64,000 nucleotides of DNA from positions 28,181 to 92,180 of IMG/VR virus record IMGVR_UViG_3300000547_000001, one strand, 5' to 3'. How positions within the stretch are numbered: the first letter of the stretch is position 1; every line of letters begins with the position of its first letter. The position numbers and the translations under genes are program-made. The notes under the pieces are model-generated. The model saw only the letters and a program-made list of their open reading frames with translations. It did no database searches and was not told the DNA's origin. Of the stretch, positions 5,683-49,427 are shown piece after piece. The stretch comes from a virus (lineage: Duplodnaviria; Heunggongvirae; Uroviricota; Caudoviricetes).

Positions 5683-6458
5683 TGTCGTTCAATATCTCAG
5701 AGTTTAGTTCTAAGCTAAATAAGTATGGACTTTCAAGAGACAACTTATTTCTTGTCACTATCACACCACCTGATCTTGGTGTTGATATGCCTGCACAAGA
5801 CTTAAGATTCTTTTGCAATAGCGTTAACCTTCCGGCTCTTTCAATATCTGTTGCAGAAGTACAGACACAGGGATATGGTCTAGCTGAAAAGCGACCAACC
5901 GGCTTACCACTTGACAATCTCAACACAGTATTTATGGTTGATTCTACTTATCGCGTAAAAGAATTCTTCCATCGTTGGGCTCAGAGCATCGTAAACTATG
6001 ACAATAATCGTGGATATAACTATGAATATAATCGTATGCTTCCTTATGAAACAGCATACAAAGATAGTTATGTTGGAACGATTGAAATCATTGTTTATTC
6101 TTATAATGAACGTGATATCAAATACGTATACAAATTTGGTAATGCGTACCCTGTCGCTCTTGGAGAGATTACCACATCATGGGAAAATAATGACAGTGTT
6201 ATGGTGATGCCAGTACAGTTTGCATACGATAAGTATCAAGTAGACGGGCTAGGTCAATCAGTAAAATCCAATCGTATCAATTCCAGCCGAGGCTTCGGCG
6301 GCGGTGGTGTAGGTGGTTTTGTTACATCACTTGGAAACTTTGGTCAAGCACTTGATGCAATTGGTATTGATACACCAATTCAAGATATCGTAAATCAGTA
6401 TTCATCAGTAGCAAGCCGTATTAATAGCGGACTTGAAGCTGTAAGAGGAATTTTCTAA
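5682..6458 (+). CDS. gp48/gp54-like tail-tube-family protein (gp19 fold)
   Basis: Likely start is ATG 5682 (MSFNISEF...). RDNLFLVTITPP resembles T4 gp19 RPNLFQVEISYL. About 258 aa. Confidence 0.4.
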   Translation: MSFNISEFSSKLNKYGLSRDNLFLVTITPPDLGVDMPAQDLRFFCNSVNLPALSISVAEVQTQGYGLAEKRPTGLPLDNLNTVFMVDSTYRVKEFFHRWAQSIVNYDNNRGYNYEYNRMLPYETAYKDSYVGTIEIIVYSYNERDIKYVYKFGNAYPVALGEITTSWENNDSVMVMPVQFAYDKYQVDGLGQSVKSNRINSSRGFGGGGVGGFVTSLGNFGQALDAIGIDTPIQDIVNQYSSVASRINSGLEAVRGIF

Positions 6459-7359: not shown

Positions 7360-8895
7360 ATGGCTCTAGAGCAAACAATAGAAAAATTCTCGGGTGTACT
7401 TAAATCCATCGAAATGAATGTGCTTAAGCAAGCGAGTTTTGCTGAGTCGCTTTATAATGAGAAACCACTTGAAAATCTAGAGCAACAAAAACAAACATCT
7501 TTACTTCAACGTCTTGTCGGTATTCAATCCGAAGAATTAAAGGTTTTGAAAGAAGGCCGTAAAAGAGCTCGAGGTGAAGAGCGTCTTACTGATATACCAA
7601 ATAAAACACGACCTACTGATGAATCTGGTAAACCTGTAACATTCGGTGGTGCTGTTGGCGCCGACGTAATAGGTGATGCGATTGTTGGTGTACTTGGTGC
7701 TATATCTTTAGGAGGTATCCTTAAAACTGCTGCACTAGCAATTGCTGCACCATTTGCTTATAAATTTGTTGAGGGCTTTTTCGGAGAATTTGGTCTAAAC
7801 GGCATTGAAGCTGCTGGTGTTACCCTTGGTGGATTAATTGCTTTAAAGACTACAAAAAGTCTAATAAAGGATGTTCTTGCAAAAGACACCACAAAAAAAT
7901 TCATGCGGGGTTTTCTTGGTAAAGCTGGAATTGCTACAGGAATAGGTATTATTGGATCTCTTATAGGCAATGCAGTAGGAGATGCATTTGAAAATCCAGA
8001 ATTAGGTGACGATATATCACAAGTTGCTAATATAGCTGCATTAGGATCGTTCTTTGGTATTAAAGGTCTTATTATTGGGGCAGTTGCTGGGCTAGCATTA
8101 ACATTAGGCCAAAAGCTTTTAGACTGGTTTAATAACCAAGACAAAAAATATCGAGACAAATTAGATGAAAAGCTAGCAGCAAATATGGCGGAAGCTGATA
8201 AAGCATTTGAAGAAGGTGATTATGAAACTGCGTCTAAGTTATCGGCAGAAAATTTAGCTAGAACAGATCAAGAATTAAAAAATAATGAGCAAAGGCTAGG
8301 TGTTGAAGCCCGAGAAAGTGTTAAACGAGCTAAAGAAGAGGCATTAACAAAATTAGAAGATCTTGCTAAAGAAGGAAAAGCAAGACCAGCTGATATTCAA
8401 TTAGCAGCTACTAAGAGACTAGAAGCAAGTGATAAGACTGTAGAAGATTATGAAAACTATATAAAGCTTATGTCACAGGCATTTAAACAGCGTGAGCCTG
8501 AAGTGAATATGTATGATATTGTCAAAACAGTTCGAGTTCCTGTAGGCTTAGGCGCCAAACCTCAAAATATTGAAAAAGCAAGACAAAATGTTTTAACAGA
8601 AATTTCTACAAAACAAGAAATGACTTATGGTACTCCATTACAAATTCCTTCTACTGGAATGTTTTGGTGGAAAAAACAAAATATGGAAGAGCTAATGCCA
8701 CCTTTAGCCCAAAAGACTGAAGCTCTATCACAAGGCTCTACTGCGATGGCTGCAGCTGGTTCGCCTGTTGTTATTAAAGGCGGTGATCGTGTTACTGGCG
8801 GATCAACCTATAATGATAATAAGACTATTACACAGGTAACTAATATCATTGATCCAACTCAGGCATTGAACTTTAACGCAGCTCAAGCAAGATAA
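7360..8895 (+). CDS. gp29-like baseplate hub / tail tape-measure protein
   Basis: 511 aa. A central Gly/Ala/Ile-rich hydrophobic repeat block (GGAVGADVIGDAIVGVLGAISLGG ... GIATGIGIIGSLIGNAVG) is followed by a coiled-coil region, typical of tape-measure proteins. Lies at the end of the structural operon and is followed by a terminator. Confidence 0.45.
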   Translation: MALEQTIEKFSGVLKSIEMNVLKQASFAESLYNEKPLENLEQQKQTSLLQRLVGIQSEELKVLKEGRKRARGEERLTDIPNKTRPTDESGKPVTFGGAVGADVIGDAIVGVLGAISLGGILKTAALAIAAPFAYKFVEGFFGEFGLNGIEAAGVTLGGLIALKTTKSLIKDVLAKDTTKKFMRGFLGKAGIATGIGIIGSLIGNAVGDAFENPELGDDISQVANIAALGSFFGIKGLIIGAVAGLALTLGQKLLDWFNNQDKKYRDKLDEKLAANMAEADKAFEEGDYETASKLSAENLARTDQELKNNEQRLGVEARESVKRAKEEALTKLEDLAKEGKARPADIQLAATKRLEASDKTVEDYENYIKLMSQAFKQREPEVNMYDIVKTVRVPVGLGAKPQNIEKARQNVLTEISTKQEMTYGTPLQIPSTGMFWWKKQNMEELMPPLAQKTEALSQGSTAMAAAGSPVVIKGGDRVTGGSTYNDNKTITQVTNIIDPTQALNFNAAQAR

Positions 8896-9314: not shown

Positions 9315-10250
9315 TTAGTCGTCAGTGAGACCTTTGAAGAACGACAGATCGTCATCGTCGTCATCACTTGTCGAACCAAAATCCGGAGAAGGAGCTTCAT
9401 CCATTGTTTTCGGTGCGCTTTCCTTGAACTTCGGAGTGAAGTCCATCTCCGGCTCGTCATCCTCGGCGGTATGTGTGGGTGCGTGGGAACCACCGTCAAG
9501 CGCAAGAACTTTGTAAAGCTTCGCTTTGAGTTCATCATACGACTTGAAGTTTTTAGGATCGACGATTTCCTGCAGAGAATGCTGGGAATTCCAAATGGAC
9601 TCCATTTCCTCGTCTGTCATCGCAGAGCCATCAGGCTTAGTGATTGGACCAGGAGCAGAAAACTCTGACTTATCATAGTTACGATAACCTTCAACATTAC
9701 GAGCTTTCAGTTTGAAATCTGCACCTTCCCAGAAGTCAAACGGATTAACAGCTTCTTCATCCTCGAATTGAGGGTTCATCATGTCATTCAGCTTATCGAA
9801 AATTTTCTTACCAAACTTGTACTTGAAAACCTTGCCTTCGTTTTGAGGATTTGCAGGATCCTTGACAACATAGACATTGGCATGGAAACCAAGACGGCGC
9901 TTCTGTTTGCGGGCGATGTCTTTATCTGATTCGACACCAGAATTCCAAAGTTTACTATTGTATTCAGAAACGGGGTCATCTTGACCAATAGTGGTAAGAG
10001 AGTTTTCAATGTACCAACCACCAGGACCTTGGAAACCATGGTCCCACATACGAACAAATGGCATGTCTTCACCCTGAGGCGCAGGAAGAAAACGAAGCAC
10101 AGCATAACCATTGCCGGCTTTGTCGACTTCGAGCTTCCAGTAGTCATCATCGCCAGATGGGCCGGAAGAGTTCATAGATTGTAGTTGGGAATTGAGCTTA
10201 TCAAACTCTTTAGAACGAGCTTGTTTTAGTGCGGAAAAAGAACTTGGCAT
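9315..10250 (-). CDS. 32: gp32 single-stranded DNA-binding protein
   Basis: 311 aa. LRFLP...W...NSKLWNS...NEGKVFKYKFGKKI..FWEGADFKLK and the acidic C-terminal tail DDDDDDLSF align with T4 gp32. Confidence 0.9.
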   Translation of the reverse strand: MPSSFSALKQARSKEFDKLNSQLQSMNSSGPSGDDDYWKLEVDKAGNGYAVLRFLPAPQGEDMPFVRMWDHGFQGPGGWYIENSLTTIGQDDPVSEYNSKLWNSGVESDKDIARKQKRRLGFHANVYVVKDPANPQNEGKVFKYKFGKKIFDKLNDMMNPQFEDEEAVNPFDFWEGADFKLKARNVEGYRNYDKSEFSAPGPITKPDGSAMTDEEMESIWNSQHSLQEIVDPKNFKSYDELKAKLYKVLALDGGSHAPTHTAEDDEPEMDFTPKFKESAPKTMDEAPSPDFGSTSDDDDDDLSFFKGLTDD

Positions 10251-10308: not shown

Positions 10309-10908
10309 TTAACTTGTATACTTAAATTTGTCAACCACTATTTTCCTCATCTTATCTTTGTCATACTCTAGAAATGGCTTGTAATTCAGCACGAAACTAT
10401 TTATATGTGGGAACATGATTTTTTCATGAATTTTTTTGTCCCAGTAAATAAAACATTTTGTCAAATCATCGAGTATCACAAGGGTTTCTGGACTAATTTT
10501 TTCTTGCATATACAATGTAAGCAAGCGTGGATGTTGTCCGTTATCAACCACAATGTTTGAGTCGAAATTATCATTCAACTCGTTTAACTCACGCTTAAAA
10601 TTATACGTGAGAGCCTGTATTCGTTTAGCCCATGCGACATAGTTTTGATGCGCTTTCTCTTCAAGCATATCACCAATCCATATCGAGGGATCAACGATCA
10701 TATTAGCAAGAATAAGCTCTTTTGCTTCTGATCTTTTTGAAAGCTTATAGAAAAAGAACTTATCTTTTCGATTCTCAAAGCTTTGGACATTAGCTTTGAT
10801 TTTGCCATTATACTTGAAGAAATCATAATTAGAAGTAAAATGACGTTTCATTGCAAGATAGTATACATAGATGTCATAAGCATCTCGAGTACTATAAAGT
10901 TTTGTCAT
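10309..10908 (-). CDS. 59: gp59 helicase (gp41) loader
   Basis: 199 aa. YDFFKYNGK ... RKDKFFFYKLSKRSEAKEL matches T4 gp59 (YDVIKYNW...RRDKYFFQKLSEKYKLKEL). Follows gene 32 as in T4. Confidence 0.8.
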   Translation of the reverse strand: MTKLYSTRDAYDIYVYYLAMKRHFTSNYDFFKYNGKIKANVQSFENRKDKFFFYKLSKRSEAKELILANMIVDPSIWIGDMLEEKAHQNYVAWAKRIQALTYNFKRELNELNDNFDSNIVVDNGQHPRLLTLYMQEKISPETLVILDDLTKCFIYWDKKIHEKIMFPHINSFVLNYKPFLEYDKDKMRKIVVDKFKYTS

Positions 10909-11201
10909 ACTGGCAACCTTGCGGTTTTCTCCATTAGTCGAAGTCGTTCAGCATCTTCACGAACTTTTGCTTTTAAAATAGGTGAACGCTTTACAATATC
11001 ACCAATGAGTTCAATTTCAATTTCATTTTTTTGAGCATAATGCACAAGAGCATCCATGAGTGTTACATCTTCATTTACCCATGGACTTACTTCTTTTAAT
11101 ATTTGCTCTGCTTTGAGGTCTTCAATTTTATCCATTGAGATTTTTGATTCCTGCTGCCCAATTTTGTGCTGCACTTTCGACCCAATGTACAGATTTTCCA
11201 T
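10905..11201 (-). CDS. hypothetical protein, possibly gp33-like late transcription co-activator (positional only). Alternative start at 11135.
   Basis: Lies immediately after gp59, as gene 33 does in T4. Size 76-98 aa depending on the start. Overlaps the 11128-11340 ORF, so the start is ambiguous. Confidence 0.3.
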   Translation of the reverse strand: MENLYIGSKVQHKIGQQESKISMDKIEDLKAEQILKEVSPWVNEDVTLMDALVHYAQKNEIEIELIGDIVKRSPILKAKVREDAERLRLMEKTARLPV

Positions 11202-11340: not shown

Positions 11341-11957
11341 TTTACCATAAATCCAATTCTTGCGGGTTTGATGAAACCATCAGCATCATCAAAACTCTCT
11401 ATATAACTATAACCCATACTTTCGTAAATGTCAATCAAATTGACTGGATCATCCTCGAATATAGGAACGAGCTCATCATATTCCGGATCAGGAGTATCTC
11501 TTAGATGTACTTCGATCACTTTATCACCTATGAATTCTATATTGATTAAAGGTAAGTCTGATAACTCATTAAGTTTACGTGGAACTGCAGGAGCATAATT
11601 AGTTCTTTTCCACCACATGAATCGAAGCTCTAGTTTACTCGCTAACCAACAACTCTTAAGTTGCCATCCAACCAAATGTTTCCAAGTAAATGTAGCCGAG
11701 TAATGATCGCCTTCAAACCATTCGCACCAAAAATATCCAGGTGGGACTTGTGTTACATCTCCGGCTTTGATAAACTTTTTATGAGCACCTGCACTCATCC
11801 CAGAGAGGTTGTAAATCGGTCTGATGATATAATAACCATCACGATCTGGAGCTACACCACAGGGGCCACAGTAGTGTCCTAGAAGGTTAGACACATAAAG
11901 CTTATTGAACCATTTACGATATTCAGGATATTCTTTCCAAGCTTCATGATCTTCCAT
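11337..11957 (-). CDS. hypothetical protein (206 aa), immediately downstream of the tmRNA-like locus
   Basis: Codon-consistent ORF with RBS-like AACGGAG upstream. No confident family assignment. Confidence 0.45.
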   Translation of the reverse strand: MEDHEAWKEYPEYRKWFNKLYVSNLLGHYCGPCGVAPDRDGYYIIRPIYNLSGMSAGAHKKFIKAGDVTQVPPGYFWCEWFEGDHYSATFTWKHLVGWQLKSCWLASKLELRFMWWKRTNYAPAVPRKLNELSDLPLINIEFIGDKVIEVHLRDTPDPEYDELVPIFEDDPVNLIDIYESMGYSYIESFDDADGFIKPARIGFMVK

Positions 11958-11961
11958 AATA

Positions 11962-12345
11962 TACTCCGTTGTTAAGTGAGCCCGTTCTGTTGCCCGGTGG
12001 AGCTCATACCGCGTAGACTCAAGCTGCGAGTGCTACAGGTTCTGCGTTAATGTTTGCAGTTATTAAGATGCGACTATTACGCGTTCGCCTCCGATAGTCT
12101 CCACGTTCCCTTCCGCATACGTCGATCCCAATTCACCCCCATCAAAGATACACTTTAAGCTTCAGAGTGTCGGACTCGAACCGACATACCCTTCTCTGAT
12201 ATTCAGAAACACAGAACGTTACAATGTTCCCTTAGTTGGCCAACTAGCTTATAAAGGTTGCGGCGCCTTTAAGTGTATCCGTGGTGGAGGTGCGGGGTTT
12301 CGAACCCCGGTCCGTCCTACGTCCAGTCAGTTTCACCGACTACAA
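11962..12345 (-). ncRNA. ssrA: candidate circularly permuted (two-piece) tmRNA / ssrA-like gene. Order on the minus strand: acceptor piece (T-arm, 3' acceptor strand, CCA; 12345-12282), then a 141-nt intervening segment containing a tRNA-like minihelix, then the coding piece starting GGGGGTGAATTGGGATCGACG at 12140, with tag ORF ANINAEPVALAA-TGA.
   Basis: Minus strand ...GTAGGACGGACCGGGGTTCGAAACCCCGCACCTCCACCA resembles the E. coli tmRNA 3' end (GGACGCGGGTTCAACTCCCGCCAGCTCCACCA). Minus strand GGGGGTGAATTGGGATCGACGTATGCGG resembles the E. coli tmRNA 5' end (GGGGCTGATTCTGGATTCGACGGGATTTGCG). GGGGGTG pairs with CACCTCC (one G-U). AATAGTCGCA (E. coli-like pre-resume motif) is followed by GCA AAC ATT AAC GCA GAA CCT GTA GCA CTC GCA GCT TGA. 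The resume codon sits at nt 84-86 from G1 (E. coli: 90). Confidence 0.45.
12159..12199 (-). other. tRNA-like minihelix (acceptor stem joined directly to a T-arm) inside the tmRNA intervening segment
   Basis: Minus strand TCAGAGA-AGGGTAT-GTCGG-TTCGAGT-CCGAC-ACTCTGA-A: a 6-bp acceptor-like stem plus a canonical TPsiC arm (TTCGAGT loop), but no D or anticodon arm. Confidence 0.4.
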
Positions 12346-12567
12346 TATATTTATACCATAAAAACTCTTTAATGTCAACAAGATAAACACGCAACCAAGT
12401 ATACCCATAAAAATATGTTTTGCATTTTCAATATCTATACCAAACGATGTAAGAACAGCAACAGAAAAAACAGTTAGAATATAACTTGTAAGAATTGATA
12501 ATGGGATATTAACCGTGATCATAGCGACGTAGTTTCTCTTCGCGCCCTTCTCTTTGACCATAGCCAA
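12340..12567 (-). CDS. small membrane protein (75 aa, 2 TM)
   Basis: Hydrophobic segments ITVNIPLSILTSYILTVFSVAVL and ILGCVFILLTL. Confidence 0.4.
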   Translation of the reverse strand: MAMVKEKGAKRNYVAMITVNIPLSILTSYILTVFSVAVLTSFGIDIENAKHIFMGILGCVFILLTLKSFYGINIL

Positions 12568-12703
12568 GTCTCCTCATTACATCCATTCTTTCAAGGTCCG
12601 TATATCGAGACCACATTCGAATTTCTTCTACAGTACGATTACAACCCTTACAAATTTGGGTTTCATTGTCGATCTTACATATACCAACACAAGGAGTAAT
12701 CAT
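12509..12703 (-). CDS. DUF1289-like Cys-rich small protein
   Basis: CVGICKIDNETQICKGCNRTVEEIRMW, the C-x-G-x-C ... C-x-G-C-x-R-T-x-x-E-I pattern of DUF1289. Confidence 0.5.
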   Translation of the reverse strand: MITPCVGICKIDNETQICKGCNRTVEEIRMWSRYTDLERMDVMRRLGYGQREGREEKLRRYDHG

Positions 12704-28174: not shown

Positions 28175-28399
28175 TCACCACCTTGAACCTGACATCAAAT
28201 TCCGATGTTCGTGAATAATATTTTGACGTTCATTAAGAGCGACCATTGCAATGGTAGCGGAAACTTCATCGTGACTTTGCTCAGTAATTTTCAACAAAGC
28301 GTCATACATTATAGCTTCAAGTTTCCAAGCCAAATCAGCACTATTTGCTTTTTTGGTACGTTGCTGATTGATTTCAAATTGAAGATCACCGATAGACAT
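28175..28399 (-). CDS. hypothetical protein (74 aa)
   Basis: ORF. Confidence 0.4.
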   Translation of the reverse strand: MSIGDLQFEINQQRTKKANSADLAWKLEAIMYDALLKITEQSHDEVSATIAMVALNERQNIIHEHRNLMSGSRW

Positions 28400-31584: not shown

Positions 31585-32449
31585 CTGAATTAGTCATTTC
31601 AAGTGGGAAGAATACAGAGTTCTTGTTGGTAGCCATTTTTTCGATTACTTGCCACTTACGATACTCAAGCAGTTCAGGTGTAACACCATCAGCAAGAATC
31701 TTATTTGCCTCGGCTACAGTTTTGGCTTCGAGTAGATCGGCTTCACGTTCAGCTCGGGCAACTTCAAGTCGTGCCTGTGCTTCTCGAATTTTTACTTGTG
31801 CATCTGCTTCTGCACGTTCAACATCAATCTTTCGACTTTGTGCTGCTTCACGTGCTTGTGTAATAATAGCAGGGAAGCGGATATCAGCAAGACCAAACTG
31901 CTTCACTTCAAGTGGAGTTCGTTTAAGAGCAGATGATACTTCTTGCTTAAGCTTTTCACTTACAGAACTTTGGTTTTCTGCGATTTCAGCAATACTGTAT
32001 TCACTCAAAGTAGAACGAACGACATTACGTACTACGCTTTGACCATAAACACCGTAGACTTGTTGAAGTGTGGTACCAAAATTTCCACTTTCAAGTCGAG
32101 TAGGAACAACACGATCAAACACGCCAAGAATTTGGTTTCGGTCCTCACTCAATGCAAGAGTAAAGCGAACATCAACACCAAGATCAAGATTGTCTTGTGG
32201 CATCAACACGGTCATTGCCTCTTTCATGCCAGCATCACCAGCTTCAATCACGACAAGTTTATCACAATTAAAGAAACAGGGAGAAAGACGGAAACGACTC
32301 GGCGGAACGATATCACCCTGATAGCCATTCTTACCAAGTACCATACCTACAGATGCAGGCGGAACTTCTACCTTTTCTCCCCAAAAACAACCAGAAAGGG
32401 ACATTACCATTGCGCCAGCAAGGGCAAGTTTTGCAAGTCGATTAAGCAT
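31547..32449 (-). CDS. SPFH/band-7 (stomatin/HflK/C-like) lipoprotein
   Basis: 300 aa. The N-terminal lipobox ...MSLSGC is followed by an SPFH-like core and a long Ala/Glu/Arg-rich coiled coil (ERAEADAQVKIREAQARLEVARAEREADLLEAK). Confidence 0.6.
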   Translation of the reverse strand: MLNRLAKLALAGAMVMSLSGCFWGEKVEVPPASVGMVLGKNGYQGDIVPPSRFRLSPCFFNCDKLVVIEAGDAGMKEAMTVLMPQDNLDLGVDVRFTLALSEDRNQILGVFDRVVPTRLESGNFGTTLQQVYGVYGQSVVRNVVRSTLSEYSIAEIAENQSSVSEKLKQEVSSALKRTPLEVKQFGLADIRFPAIITQAREAAQSRKIDVERAEADAQVKIREAQARLEVARAEREADLLEAKTVAEANKILADGVTPELLEYRKWQVIEKMATNKNSVFFPLEMTNSVGLENRIFSEGK

Positions 32450-32463
32450 TATTTAGATTCTCC

Positions 32464-32742
32464 TTATTGAGTTTTTTGAAAACAGTTGAGACCCATATAG
32501 GGTGCCGAAGACGAGTTACCAATTGCAACAGTGCAATAAGTATTAGGATCACTTTCTGTCTGCCACTCATATACACGAAAGTCAAAACCATAAGCTTCAA
32601 CTTTGAAAGCTTTACTTTGTTTGACAGGCCAGTTACTTGTTGCAATGCTATCAAACAAACCAGCATTTGCTTGTCCAGAGGTGAGTGCTGCATATCCGGT
32701 GCCGAGTACACCTAGAGCAGCGATTGTCCAAATAAACTTCAT
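32464..32742 (-). CDS. small secreted protein (92 aa, signal peptide)
   Basis: MKFIWTIAALGVLGTGYAALTSGQANA signal-like N-terminus. Confidence 0.45.
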   Translation of the reverse strand: MKFIWTIAALGVLGTGYAALTSGQANAGLFDSIATSNWPVKQSKAFKVEAYGFDFRVYEWQTESDPNTYCTVAIGNSSSAPYMGLNCFQKTQ

Positions 32743-44649: not shown

Positions 44650-44740
44650 TGGCGGATAGGGTGGGAGTCGAACCCACACGAGACTGATTACTCCGAACGG
44701 TTTTCAAGACCGTGGCCACCGCCAGTTGGCTTGCCTATCC
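44650..44740 (-). tRNA. tRNA-Ser(UGA), class II
   Basis: GGATAGG ... ACGGT-CTTGAAA-ACCGT, long variable arm, GTGGG-TTCGACT-CCCAC-CCTATCC-G-CCA. Confidence 0.7.
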
Positions 44741-45146: not shown

Positions 45147-45230
45147 TGGTGCTAGGTGCCGGAATCGAACCGACTCGCCCTTCCGGGAAAGCGTTATGAG
45201 CGCTCAGGCTCCCCATTTGCCATACCTAGC
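45147..45230 (-). tRNA. class II-shaped tRNA with a CAU anticodon (unusual; identity unresolved)
   Basis: GCTAGGT-AT-GGC-AAATGGGGA-GCC-T-GAGCG-CTCATAA-CGCTT-TCCCGGAAGGGCGA-GTCGG-TTCGATT-CCGGC-ACCTAGC-A-CCA. Has a 3-bp D-stem, a 14-nt variable arm and A8/U9. Confidence 0.4.
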
Positions 45231-45965: not shown

Positions 45966-46132
45966 ATAAACTCTGTTTTCAGCTGCACTCTAAATCCGCC
46001 TTCTTTAAAACCGCTACGGTGTGCGCGAAATGAGCGCATGTGAAAATAGAGTTTATCTATTTCCATCTCTATCATCGAGTTACCTCTAAGAGAAATTCTA
46101 AATTTTCAAAGAGCGTGGTGATTAACACCTTG

Positions 46133-46169
46133 TATAATTAATATAGTCTATTTATTCGGTAATGTCAAC
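46133..46169 (-). promoter_or_regulatory. early promoter upstream of the leader RNA and tRNA-Asn
   Basis: Minus strand TTGACATTACCGAATAAATAGAC-TATATT. Confidence 0.5.
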
Positions 46170-46177
46170 TACTTTTT

Positions 46178-46603
46178 TTAAAATTTTCCACCAACACCAA
46201 CAAAATAAGATGTTGCACTACCACTCAGTGAATGGCCAACTTTACCATATGCCATAAGATCATCGTTAATGCCATATGCAAATCCAGCAGCAACAGCTTC
46301 TCGACTAGTTCCAGCGGCGTCTACGCCACCAATACCAACAGACCATGTCCAAGTATTCTCAGTAGGATCAAAAAGTTCCAGAGAACCAACAGTTGCAACA
46401 ACAGCATCTGTTTCTACCATTTTGCCATAATCAACAACACCATCTTTACCCGCAACACCTTGAGGACCAGTTGCTCCAGTATCACCTTGAGGACCTTGAA
46501 TTACTTTGTAGTCATCATCGTCGTCATGATCACGGTCACCGGCAAAAACCGGAAAAGCAAGCATACTTGTGACCATAGCAGTAGTAATCAAAATATTTTT
46601 CAT
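46178..46603 (-). CDS. secreted collagen-like repeat protein (start MKNILITTAM)
   Basis: Signal peptide, then DRDHDDDDDYKVIQ, then a G-x-y triple-helix motif GPQGDTGATGPQGVAGKDG, then a C-terminal Gly-rich beta-like domain. Confidence 0.55.
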   Translation of the reverse strand: MKNILITTAMVTSMLAFPVFAGDRDHDDDDDYKVIQGPQGDTGATGPQGVAGKDGVVDYGKMVETDAVVATVGSLELFDPTENTWTWSVGIGGVDAAGTSREAVAAGFAYGINDDLMAYGKVGHSLSGSATSYFVGVGGKF

Positions 46604-48030: not shown

Positions 48031-48166
48031 ATAACTCTACTTTTACAATAGGTAGCGAGGGGATTTGCACCGAGTCCCTAAACTCTTTTCCTCTTTTCAA
48101 CAACTAGGGAATTGTTTACTTTGCACCTTGCCTACCTAATCTAAAAATAGAGTTTATTTACTGAGG

Positions 48167-48250
48167 CTGGGCTGGATTCGAACCACCTTCATATACCTAG
48201 CTTACTGCGCACTCGTCTAGGTTTGCTTTAACCCATTCTAAGCTACAGCC
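48167..48250 (-). other. tRNA-like element (canonical D-arm and T-loop; anticodon region replaced by a 6-bp stem with a 16-nt loop)
   Basis: GGGGCTG-TA-GCTT-AGAATGGGTTA-AAGC ... ACCTAG-ACGAGTGCGCAGTAAG-CTAGGT ... GGTGG-TTCGAAT-CCAGC. The acceptor 3' strand pairs poorly and there is no CCA. Confidence 0.3.
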
Positions 48251-48259
48251 CCATAATTT

Positions 48260-48330
48260 TGGTAGTACCTGATAGAATTGAACCATCCCTAAAGGCTTAT
48301 GAGACCTTCGTCTAGACCACTAGAGGTACT
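48260..48330 (-). tRNA. compact tRNA with a CAU anticodon (Met or Ile2 candidate; 71 nt, miniature D-arm)
   Basis: AGTACCT-CTAGTGGTCTAGACG-AAGGT-CTCATAA-GCCTT-TAGG-GATGG-TTCAATT-CTATC-AGGTACT-A-CCA. Confidence 0.4.
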
Positions 48331-48339
48331 GTATTTGGT

Positions 48340-48472
48340 GTGCAGAGGTGGATTCGAACCACCATCGCAGGATTACTTTCTCAAGTTATTGTAGCGCTAC
48401 TTTACCTTGATACTTGTAAAGCCTACATTCTCCGCCCTCCTGAGCGGCGACTTTACCATTTGTCCATCTACA
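48340..48472 (-). other. tRNA-like element: canonical T-arm, acceptor and CCA, but about 90 nt of non-cloverleaf sequence between the acceptor strands
   Basis: 3' end GGTGG-TTCGAAT-CCACC-TCTGCAC-A-CCA. A candidate 5' strand GTGTAGA lies 133 nt upstream. Internal hairpin CCGCTC-AGGA-GGGCGG. Confidence 0.25.
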
Positions 48473-48479
48473 CAAATTT

Positions 48480-48564
48480 TGGTGGGGAGGTGCCGAGTCG
48501 AACGGCACGCTTTTACACTCCGGGTTTACAATCCTTCTGTGGCTACCCGCCACTGAACCTCCCC
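48480..48564 (-). tRNA. tRNA-Tyr(GUA)-like class II tRNA (anticodon loop TTGTAAA; anticodon stem poorly paired)
   Basis: Acceptor GGGGAGG/CCTCCCC-A-CCA. T-arm TGCCG-TTCGACT-CGGCA. 85 nt. The D-arm is a 5-bp stem GTGGC/GCCAC. Confidence 0.4.
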
Positions 48565-48940
48565 AAATATTGGTTTGACTGCCGGATTCGAACCGACTAT
48601 CTCCCGACCTACATCGGGCGTGTTACCACGGGCAAAAAGGAGTCTGCAGCCTCACAAATTGTCCTTACCCTCTCACCAAGTCAATCTCTGTTTTCAGCTG
48701 CTAATGTGTAGGAGTCGAACCTACTGGGCGGACCGCCGTCCTATTTGCTACACCAAGTATAAAGAAGGAATCGAACCTTCGCGAAGCCACCAAGACCAAG
48801 GAGGGAATCGAACCCTCTCACCTTACCAAGCATTAGCATGTGAAAACAGAGGCTCTGTTTTCAACTGCACTGCATCTAGCCGACCACGGATTTGAACCGC
48901 TCCCAGGTTCGCTGGTCTCTCCCATCTCGCAAGATTGAGA
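48560..48940 (-). repeat. array of degenerate tRNA-like / T-arm hairpin units without complete cloverleaves
   Basis: Successive minus-strand units ...CTTGGT ... GAGGG-TTCGATT-CCCTC, ...CTTGGT ... GAAGG-TTCGATT-CCTTC, ...CTTGGT ... GTAGG-TTCGACT-CCTAC, GTCGG-TTCGAAT-CCGGC and GCGG-TTCAAAT-CCGT, interspersed with AAAACAGAG ... CTCTGTTTT hairpins. Confidence 0.4.
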
Positions 48941-49057
48941 AATGCGTATCAGCTTACAGTGCATGTGAAAACAGAGCTTTCTCTGTTTCCAGTCTATTAT
49001 CGAGTTACCTCTAAGACCATAGCCAAATTTTCAAAGAACGTGGTGATTAACACCTTA

Positions 49058-49094
49058 TATAAACAATCTACACTATACTCAAACCAATGTCAAC
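49058..49094 (-). promoter_or_regulatory. early promoter at the head of the 48.0-49.0 kb tRNA sub-cluster
   Basis: Minus strand TTGACATTGGTTTGAGTATAGTG-TAGATT. Confidence 0.5.
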
Positions 49095-49107
49095 AACTTT
49101 TTTCACT

Positions 49108-49191
49108 TTTTACTCAATAAAACCATAAATCATTAAAATAATTAGAACAAAAATAAATACGACAGAACCTAAAGCAATATATCCAGCAAGC
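49108..49191 (-). CDS. small TM peptide (27 aa)
   Basis: MLAGYIALGSVVFIFVLIILMIYGFIE with a GGAG RBS. Immediately after a terminator. Confidence 0.25.
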
Positions 49192-49217
49192 ATTTCGTTA
49201 CTCCAATAAAAAACCCT

Positions 49218-49250
49218 CCGAGCTTCTCAGCTGGAGGGTTGAAGACCTTA
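49218..49250 (-). terminator. rho-independent terminator
   Basis: Minus strand CCCTCCAGCTGAGAAGCTCGGAGGG followed by TTTTTTATTGG. Confidence 0.55.
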
Positions 49251-49382
49251 ACTTTCGTTACGATTAGTCTCGAGCACCCTCCGTGCGCATATCCCAACGG
49301 ACGCTATAAAAGCGTTCGCACATAATGGGATTATTTTTGAGATGAATCGAAAGCATTAGTTTCCTCGTTTGTTTCTTACTAA

Positions 49383-49390
49383 TATTTATA
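49383..49390 (-). promoter_or_regulatory. T4-type late promoter TATAAATA upstream of a 30-aa ORF
   Basis: Minus strand GTGTATAAATATTAGTAAGAAACAAACGAGGAAACTA-ATG (MLSIHLKNNPIMCERFYSVRWDMRTEGARD). A terminator follows. Confidence 0.35.
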
Positions 49391-49427
49391 CACAAACTTT
49401 ACAAGTTTTGGAAAAAAGTTAAAAAAA

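Follow-up and report, generated by a model that had tools for sequence, protein, structure and literature searches.

The subject of this analysis is a gene for a transfer-messenger RNA (tmRNA) on a 64,000-nucleotide (nt) stretch of DNA from a virus of the class Caudoviricetes (IMG/VR record IMGVR_UViG_3300000547_000001, positions 28,181 to 92,180). This whole stretch is called the window below. ARAGORN places a permuted tmRNA gene on the minus strand at 11928-12378 and reads its tag as ANINAEPVALAA followed by a stop. Two Rfam covariance models also match: RF04321 (tmRNA_permuted) at 93.6 bits against a threshold of 47 (E = 8e-17, model positions 1-213 of 213), and RF01849 (alpha_tmRNA) at 79.3 bits against a threshold of 50 (E = 7e-20, model positions 1-355 of 355). 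These matches are far beyond chance, and the locus is a permuted two-piece tmRNA gene of the alphaproteobacterial type. An initial annotation, made from the sequence without database searches, had described a two-piece phage tmRNA with an intact tag ending in ALAA and had suggested ARAGORN and RF01849 as checks. Both match, as does RF04321, and the description is further borne out by the anatomy of the gene and by covariation among its relatives.

The gene is circularly permuted, such that the T-arm, the 3´ strand of the acceptor stem, and the CCA end precede the acceptor 5´ strand and the tag frame on one strand. The acceptor piece (62 nt, 12282-12343, minus strand like all parts of the gene) was delimited from the sequence, ARAGORN, and Rfam; its 5´ end was deduced from the position of the promoter and from where the Rfam match begins. 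It contains the 5´ strand of helix P2 (UAGUC...), GGAC, a T-arm with a stem of 5 base pairs (bp) and a 7-nt loop (CGGGG-UUCGAAA-CCCCG, 12293-12309), the acceptor 3´ strand CACCUCC (12286-12292), and an encoded ACCA (12282-12285). The string GGACCGGGGTTCGAAACCCCGCACCTCCACCA, which covers the T-arm, the acceptor 3´ strand, and CCA, ends at 12282. A non-coding intervening segment (IVS, or spacer) of 141 nt follows (12141-12281); it was defined from sequence, folding, and covariation and is expected to be excised. The coding piece (11975-12140), recognized from the sequence, ARAGORN, and Rfam, has an approximate 3´ end set by the end of the Rfam match. Its 5´ end GGGGGTGAATTGGGATCGACG begins at 12140 and reads on as GGGGGUGAAUUGGGAUCGACG..., so that the piece carries G1, GGGGGUG (12134-12140), AAUUGGGAUCGAC, the P2 3´ strands (including GACUA), the pseudoknot region, and the tag frame, and closes with a 3´ terminal helix (UGAGCUC...GGGCUCA).

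The acceptor stem is formed across the two pieces by GGGGGUG and CACCUCC, with seven of seven positions paired, including a G3.U70 wobble. A G3.U pair is the alanine identity element of tmRNA and tRNA-Ala. The tag frame, called by ARAGORN at 12019-12057 (GCA AAC ATT AAC GCA GAA CCT GTA GCA CTC GCA GCT TGA), starts at nucleotide 84 of the coding piece with GCA as the resume codon, and the resume context UAAUAACU before this GCA aligns with AUAAAU before GCA in relatives. The frame itself is in register with the ANDN...ALAA tags of relatives. Every string quoted in the initial annotation was found on the minus strand where it had been placed, and the 141-nt gap, the tag start at nucleotide 84, and the fully paired GGGGGTG/CACCTCC were likewise accurate. 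The “AATAGTCGCA” motif that it had described as preceding the tag is present, but this motif lies 11 nt upstream of the resume codon and does not adjoin it.

A promoter can be recognized from the sequence directly upstream. The -35 hexamer TTGACA (12373-12378, minus strand) is followed after 17 nt by a -10 region, TATAAA(TA) (12348-12355, minus strand). In most relatives, (C)TTGACA is found at equal spacing from a TATAAAT-type box. Nearly all relatives keep this box, roughly 8-10 nt upstream of the RNA start, and a subset of relatives keeps the box alone. The extended sequence TATAAATA corresponds to the T4 late-promoter consensus, which would make both early and late expression conceivable. 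The built-in promoter scan missed the TATAAA box because position 6 of the hexamer is A. Downstream, the GGAG-ATG of the next open reading frame (ORF) lies within approximately 18 nt of the tmRNA gene.

The tmRNA gene sits among T4-type genes. On the minus strand, the order begins with a cell-wall hydrolase gene, a DUF7352-like ORF (a weak match, below the Pfam threshold), and a gene for a small Cys-rich DUF1289 protein (12509-12703, Pfam PF06945) directly upstream of the tmRNA. The tmRNA gene is followed by a phrog_3577 ORF, an ORF of 70 amino acids, and the genes for the late-transcription coactivator gp33 (10905-11201, Pfam PF16805), gp59 (10309-10908, PHROGs match), and gp32 (9315-10250, PHROGs match). 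The window, which has a G+C content of 39%, also encodes a baseplate/tail-lysozyme-like protein, a ribonucleotide reductase, and, at 41.7-50.0 kb, 24 tRNA genes called by ARAGORN. At the nucleotide level, none of 50,697 deposited phage genomes is close to that of the window. Protein similarity places it among T4-like phages of the marine cyanophage, pelagiphage, Melnitz, and Sinorhizobium phiM12 types: its gp32 is 53-55% identical to homologues from these groups, and another of its proteins has its best matches in Pelagibacter phage HTVC008M and Melnitz.

Relatives of the gene were sampled from 80 IMG/VR contigs that encode a relative of gp59. ARAGORN reports a permuted tmRNA upstream of gp59 and on the same strand in 47 of these contigs, and Rfam adds four that ARAGORN missed (L038, L050, L058, and L079), which brings the total to at least 51 of 80. 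In many of the others, the upstream sequence is missing from the contig. The view that such a gene is unusual in a lytic T4-like phage, as first annotated, fails in light of this count and of the tmRNAs already published in phages (PMC9004378). The tags are intact in every relative called by ARAGORN, and thus the scattered tag mutations that were initially named as a sign of a decayed host fragment were not found. Most of these tags start with ANDN, ANDD, ANEN, or ANSN, and they end in (A/V/I/L)(L/V/I)AA and a stop, mostly as LAA. The first 45 related genes to be recovered all have a completely paired acceptor stem with an invariant G3.U, whereas positions 5-7 of the stem are occupied by six different complementary combinations.

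Covariation was then examined in an alignment of 20 distinct phage relatives, in which the interiors of long spacers were replaced by GAAA. The consensus fold comprises the T-arm, the acceptor stem, a stem that closes the spacer, and the P2 helices between the pieces. Paired cells amount to 97.7%, compared to 42-48% when the partners are slid, and compensatory changes occur in 25 of 40 pairs compared to 7-10 in the slid controls. Neither value was attained in any of 500 shuffles. In the P2 columns (21-24/160-163 and 50-52/136-138), pairing is at 99-100% and compensatory changes are present, and the window sequence satisfies the consensus pairs with UAGUC/GACUA and ACG/CGU. The P2 pairing between the pieces, for which the initial annotation had proposed a folding test, is therefore supported by covariation. 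Two pairs of the T-stem also covary (in 12 and 9 of the 20 relatives), as does a four-pair stem downstream of the tag (alignment columns 265-268/281-284).

Two further observations concern the wider distribution of such genes. A metagenome scan with the 20-mer 5´ end returned 13 contigs with heterogeneous tmRNAs, both one-piece and permuted, and the spacer of the window was absent from all 13. Separately, the best Rfam model for the tmRNAs of two contigs (L042 2870-3286 and L110 3632-4005) is the betaproteobacterial RF01850 and not the alphaproteobacterial model. L042 shares the gp59 locus with the window gene, and the correspondence between this phage group and the Rfam subtypes is therefore not a clean one.

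Based on these sequence features, the locus very probably represents a functional ssrA gene of the phage, in the circularly permuted, two-piece form. Several points weigh against this reading. The minimum-energy fold of the window sequence alone gives the acceptor stem but local hairpins instead of P2, such that the support for P2 is comparative only, and the Rfam alignment flags several non-canonical pairs in the P2 of the window. For the putative pseudoknots, candidate pairings were noted by eye (GCGA/UCGC and ACUAU/AUAGU). Furthermore, GACUAU of the coding piece (approximately 12092-12097) can pair not only with the 5´ end of the acceptor piece (12338-12343) but also with the downstream AUAGUC (12070-12075, within 12068-12077). 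An intrinsic terminator was not predicted between the tmRNA and the next ORF, and the 3´ end of the coding piece would presumably be produced by processing. No SmpB-like gene was seen in the 64-kb window in a weak tblastn test with an E. coli SmpB sequence, and activity would thus depend on the SmpB of the host. Several relatives with at least 3 kb of upstream flank have no tmRNA. Lastly, expression, processing, charging, and tagging are all inferred.

The choice of GACUAU between UAGUC of the acceptor piece and the downstream AUAGUC is also present in the Rhodobacter phage RcSimone-Hastad, and this dual pairing may represent either an alternative fold or a component of pseudoknot 1. With respect to distribution, the tmRNA gene is common yet dispensable in this phage group, and Buchholz et al. 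likewise found the tmRNA of the Melnitz group to be common but dispensable (PMC9004378).

The part of the locus that proved most distinctive is the intervening segment. Spacers were surveyed in the relatives fetched through gp59 and in two additional loci (L001 and L002). They range from 27 to 168 nt in length and always have a covarying closing stem and a UUGAU-type leader, with interiors that are mutually unrelated between lineages. In the window, the closing stem GGAUACACUU/AAGUGUAUC of approximately 10 bp prolongs the acceptor helix and covaries across relatives. It encloses a branched interior, and the conserved UUGAU leader stands before G1 and pairs with the ACCA end in the precursor. 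The fold of the whole segment is more stable than that of shuffled sequence (z = -2.8).

Within the segment lies a tRNA-like minihelix (12159-12199, minus strand), recognized by folding, by the tRNA model, and by comparison with a related contig described below. A stem of 6 bp (UCAGAG/CUCUGA) stacks on a second 6-bp stem that carries a canonical T-loop (UGUCGG-UUCGAGU-CCGACA), and the 5´ strand contains a 7-nt bulge. With its total of 12 bp, the helix corresponds in geometry to the acceptor/T-arm stack of a tRNA. This is the minimum-energy structure and accounts for 81% of the ensemble. The minihelix had been remarked on in the initial annotation, and it is real in the sense of its 6 + 6 bp and UUCGAGU loop. 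It is not a complete tRNA: on RF00005, it reaches only 15.8 bits where 29 are required (E = 0.58 over 147 nt), and the alignment deletes the anticodon arm. ARAGORN likewise produced only implausible tRNA models, at relaxed thresholds, and the segment matches no other known Rfam family. The T-arm of the minihelix is most like that of the tRNA-Met gene of the window at 45147-45230 (22 of 28 identities), with a likeness score of 31 compared to 30 for the best of 200 shuffles.

Searches for the same element elsewhere gave few results. It was not found in the gp59-linked relatives, including L003, the contig closest by gp59, nor in L001. A search of IMG/VR with the spacer T-arm and its flank returned nothing. 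A looser pattern, with a T-loop 15-45 nt before UGAUGGGG, mostly recovered the T-arms of tmRNAs themselves or tRNA clusters, and it also found contig L102 and other spacers that bear a T-arm. Two further motif scans produced L102 and chance matches only, and a covariance model of the spacer (R1) detected no other homologue in approximately 1.6 Mb of fetched loci.

L102 is an IMG/VR viral contig that carries the nearest tmRNA relative found, with a clearly homologous spacer of 143 nt. The upstream gene order is shared as well: a cell-wall hydrolase, a Cys-rich ORF (DUF1289-like by eye), and the tmRNA. Identity between the window and L102 is 65% in the spacer, 65% in the acceptor piece, 64% in the 5´ coding part, and 64% in the tag. 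In a six-helix structure for the two spacers, 65 of 66 cells are paired and one is broken, and 13 of 33 pairs have changed on both sides while remaining paired, compared to none in slid controls. Both stems of the minihelix show such compensatory changes, whereas the loop UUGUAACGUUC and the stretch GAAUAUCA are invariant. This evidence comes from two sequences only, and the structure was drawn while viewing both; with that scope, it points to selection acting on the structure of the spacer. Near the tmRNA of L102, on the plus strand at 8592-8786, we also noted a 64-amino-acid ORF (MKVEVRNNNVERAMQILKRKL...) that resembles ribosomal protein bS21 by eye.

Hairpins that resemble a T-arm recur in the spacers of other viral contigs (L084, L110/L122, L091, L184, L189, and L117), mostly beside the 3´ strand of the closing stem. 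All of the T-arm-bearing contigs except L117 were confirmed as permuted tmRNAs by Rfam. Because these contigs were selected for the T-loop motif, they demonstrate recurrence and not frequency. Furthermore, the spacer of a permuted tmRNA at 5950-6406 of L116 (IMGVR_UViG_3300044634_000746) holds a tRNA-Val(gac) at 6101-6170, as called by ARAGORN. The recurring hairpins and this whole tRNA could mean that phages repeatedly place tRNA-like cargo in the slot of the excised spacer.

Spacers of a different kind carry a small basic ORF opened by ATG. These were seen in the phage Melnitz (L247, MZ577097.1) at approximately 2322-2463, in L079 at 768-932, and in L058 at 1825-1993, within spacers of 142, 164, and 168 nt, respectively. 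The ORF in the Melnitz spacer is preceded by a GGAG that resembles a ribosome-binding site, and the ORFs of Melnitz and L079 run into the coding piece.

How the intervening segment should be interpreted is less clear than the identity of the gene. One explanation, to which we give slightly less than an even chance, is that the tRNA-like module is a neutral remnant of an inserted tRNA gene, or of the 3´ half of a tRNA, with no role of its own. Spacers are hypervariable in length and tolerate insertions, as the intact tRNA-Val in L116 and a tRNA-Ala reported in another spacer (PMC11915505) illustrate. A remnant would also fit the resemblance of the T-arm to the phage’s own tRNA-Met, the score below the threshold of the tRNA model with no anticodon arm, and the absence of the element from L003 and L001. 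This explanation must contend, however, with the L102 spacer, which is conserved to the same extent as the mature RNA (65% compared to 64-65%) and in which 13 of 33 pairs are compensated with a single broken cell and no compensated pairs in slid controls. It must also contend with the several unrelated viral spacers that end in a T-arm-like hairpin beside the closing stem.

A second interpretation, which we hold only tentatively and regard as rather doubtful, is that the segment is a selected, structured RNA module that is co-transcribed with the tmRNA and excised from it. Such a module would comprise the 12-bp acceptor/T-arm mimic and two conserved hairpins, one with the UUGUAACGUUC loop, and it might guide tRNA-processing enzymes such as RNase P or be released as a separate small tRNA-like RNA. 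Minihelices are substrates of RNase P. Our preferred guess for a function is that the module provides an additional entry site for tRNA-processing enzymes into a long and stable spacer. A neutral tRNA remnant and an entry point for enzymes appear about as likely as each other.

The tmRNA itself can be placed in a mechanism that follows what is known of permuted tmRNAs. Host RNA polymerase would transcribe the gene from the sigma-70-type promoter (TTGACA-N17-TATAAA) to give one precursor, in which the acceptor piece, the 141-nt IVS, and the coding piece follow one another. The CACCUCC-ACCA end would pair with GGGGGUG, in a helix lengthened by the closing stem of approximately 10 bp. From knowledge of other permuted tmRNAs, RNase P of the host would be expected to cut 5´ of G1, after the UUGAU leader, and trimming of the 3´ end to the encoded CCA would release the IVS and leave two RNAs held together by the acceptor stem and P2. 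Passages of PMC9004378 and PMC11915505 describe two-piece phage tmRNAs and their processing by tRNA enzymes.

The host alanyl-tRNA synthetase would presumably charge the assembled RNA via G3.U70, and SmpB and EF-Tu of the host would bring it to ribosomes that have stalled on mRNAs that are broken or lack a stop codon. Translation would then resume at GCA and add ANINAEPVALAA, with its ..LAA degron, such that the ribosome is recycled and the peptide is degraded. The phage might thereby gain additional capacity for ribosome rescue, as well as amino-acid recycling, while host mRNAs are destroyed and host transcription is shut down. A benefit from rescue capacity has already been put forward as a hypothesis in the literature.

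Comparison with L003, whose gp59 is 92% identical to that of the window in amino acid sequence, indicates how rapidly the gene can change. The region 1-472 of L003 has 84% DNA identity to the window from position 12010 downstream. The tmRNA of L003, in contrast, is approximately 53% identical in a structural alignment, among the lowest values of all relatives, and differs from that of the window in its acceptor stem, T-loop, spacer, and tag. On the strength of these sequences, the tmRNA body appears to have been exchanged as a cassette between closely related phages, and one breakpoint falls within the 3´ portion of the gene.

Such turnover of tmRNA alleles between close relatives is one of the arguments for another explanation of the gene, namely, that its RNA mainly competes with or re-programs host trans-translation, either by titrating SmpB or through a tag with a changed specificity that starts with ANIN.. 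in place of ANDN... The window tag indeed departs from the near-universal ANDN start by a change from D to I, and L042 has ANVN. There is also a precedent, since a passage in PMC11915505 describes a tRNA-like tmRNA of mycobacteriophage DS6A that has no coding sequence and inhibits the endogenous tmRNA. However, the mRNA-like domain, the resume context, and the LAA degron are all retained and conserved, and a pure inhibitor would not need them; we therefore judge competition to be quite improbable as the main role of the RNA.

The weakest explanation, a decayed or partial fragment of a host ssrA gene left non-functional (for example, by imprecise excision at an ssrA attachment site), can draw on the known ssrA fragments of prophages (PMC9004378) and on the cassette-like exchange between the window and L003, but it is very improbable and already largely refuted by the end-to-end match of both covariance models, the intact tag, G3.U, CCA, promoter, and P2, the recurrence of the gene at a single conserved locus across dozens of lytic T4-like contigs, where its pairs change in a compensatory manner and its tags stay intact, and the lack of an integrase among the neighboring genes checked. 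A host source was also sought with a 17-mer, GGAGACTATCGGAGGCG, that the window has in common with RcSimone-Hastad. This sequence has 33 matches in 185,579 genomes, which we estimate to be close to chance expectation, and none of the nine loci checked, which took in all four alphaproteobacterial ones, holds a tmRNA.

Some observations in the tRNA gene cluster of the window are separate from the tmRNA. Additional tRNA-like sequences beyond the ARAGORN calls lie at 48050-49420 on the minus strand. The sequence at 48263-48330, with the anticodon loop CUCAUAA, narrowly misses the threshold of 29 of the Rfam tRNA model, at 28.7 bits. A second, at 48793-48918, matches the tRNA-Sec model weakly (23.8 bits) and contains an insertion of 53 nt, and a canonical T-arm, GTCGGTTCGAATCCGGC, is present at 48581-48597 and is followed by AGTCAAACCA. 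These sequences may be unusual or decayed tRNAs. At 44654-44740 on the minus strand, Rfam reports a tRNA-Sec (51.9 bits, threshold 47) where ARAGORN calls a tRNA-Ser(tga). Both the anticodon and the long variable arm are as expected for tRNA-Ser, and the tRNA-Sec call therefore looks like a by-product of this arm.

The tmRNA gene is almost certainly functional, and it adds a well-supported example to the pelagiphage- and Melnitz-related marine T4-like myophages that often carry a two-piece ssrA gene near gp33-gp59-gp32. The pattern of ssrA genes in phages lends support to the view that, among host functions, ribosome rescue becomes limiting during infection. The most distinctive aspects of this example are the tRNA-like module in its spacer and its cassette-like turnover. 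The former indicates that an excised spacer can carry a conserved structured RNA. If the module has a function, phages would be hiding additional small RNAs or processing signals in permuted tmRNA genes, and the tmRNA precursor would be a tractable substrate for studying how tRNA enzymes resolve composite precursors. The latter cautions against treating the phylogeny of phage ssrA genes as a simple record of host history.

Among known systems, the gene is a new instance of a class already described at the same locus in related phages. Buchholz et al. (2022) reported 53 two-piece genes among 133 unique phage tmRNAs, 50 of them marine or aquatic, and found permuted tmRNAs in 17 of 47 Melnitz-like contigs (PMC9004378). 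The 2025 release of the tmRNA database lists 79 unique bacteriophage tmRNAs and 11,946 permuted tmRNAs (PMC11915505).

The closest described counterparts are the ssrA genes of the Methylophilales phage Melnitz and of related pelagimyophage-type contigs (PMC9004378). In the window comparison, we used the gene of Melnitz, annotated at 45984-46436 of GenBank MZ577097.1 and confirmed here by ARAGORN and Rfam. Both phages are marine T4-like myophages, with gp32 proteins that are approximately 54% identical. Both tmRNA genes are permuted and alphaproteobacterial in type, have a TTGACA/TATAAAT-type promoter and a long IVS (142 nt in Melnitz and 141 nt in the window), and encode tags of the same family (ANDNYVPVDYALAA in Melnitz and ANINAEPVALAA in the window), although the window tag has Ile where nearly all others have Asp. 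In Melnitz, the order is ssrA, gp33, gp59, three other genes, and gp32, on the same strand as one another as in the window, whereas in the window two additional ORFs separate the tmRNA from gp33. Another difference is that ssrA of Melnitz is followed by a glutamine riboswitch (RF01739, 52.8 bits), whereas none was detected in the window even at E values up to 10. This riboswitch is common after ssrA but does not define the group (Buchholz et al., PMC9004378). The spacers also differ, with an apparent ribosome-binding site and a small ORF in Melnitz and the tRNA-like minihelix module in the window.

The two-piece tmRNAs of alphaproteobacteria (RF01849), for which Caulobacter is the prototype (Keiler, Shapiro, and Williams 2000, as cited in PMC9004378 and PMC11915505), have the same gene order as the window copy, the encoded CCA, G3.U70, P2, and an ANxN...ALAA tag. 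They also share the conserved 3´ motif ACC.GGCAACAGAA. The window copy differs in being encoded by a lytic phage instead of a bacterium and in its T-loop, which is a canonical UUCGAAA in place of the GGCGGUA-type alphaproteobacterial consensus. In addition, the 5´ hairpin of RF01849 is deleted in the window alignment, and the window spacer is far longer than the approximately 40 nt of the model.

A different similarity is to tRNAs that reside inside spacers. A single intact tRNA-Ala in the spacer of a nominally archaeal metagenome-assembled genome was termed a unique feature (PMC11915505), and L116 provides a viral case. As in the window, a tRNA-type acceptor/T-arm is found within an excised spacer. 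However, the tRNAs of the archaeal assembly and L116 are intact and high scoring, whereas the element in the window has no anticodon arm and no free 3´ end or CCA, and it sits, unlike those tRNAs, in a larger branched fold that is common to L102.

Finally, the Rhodobacter phage RcSimone-Hastad (MW677525.1) is the only deposited phage genome with a nucleotide match to the window, at 78% over 85 nt of the pseudoknot region (GGAGACUAUCGGAGGCGA.CGCG). This match lies in a permuted tmRNA gene at approximately 32099-32512 (L002 2321-2734) that is unannotated in GenBank, scores 108.7 bits on RF04321, and encodes the tag ANDNVRMDAQALAA. Its genome of 63 kb differs in context, with genes for a HIRAN-domain protein and a topoisomerase flanking the tmRNA, and its 97-nt spacer has no T-arm hairpin (only a loose T-loop-like motif at one position). 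Nevertheless, the tmRNA of RcSimone-Hastad is, like that of the window, alphaproteobacterial in type.

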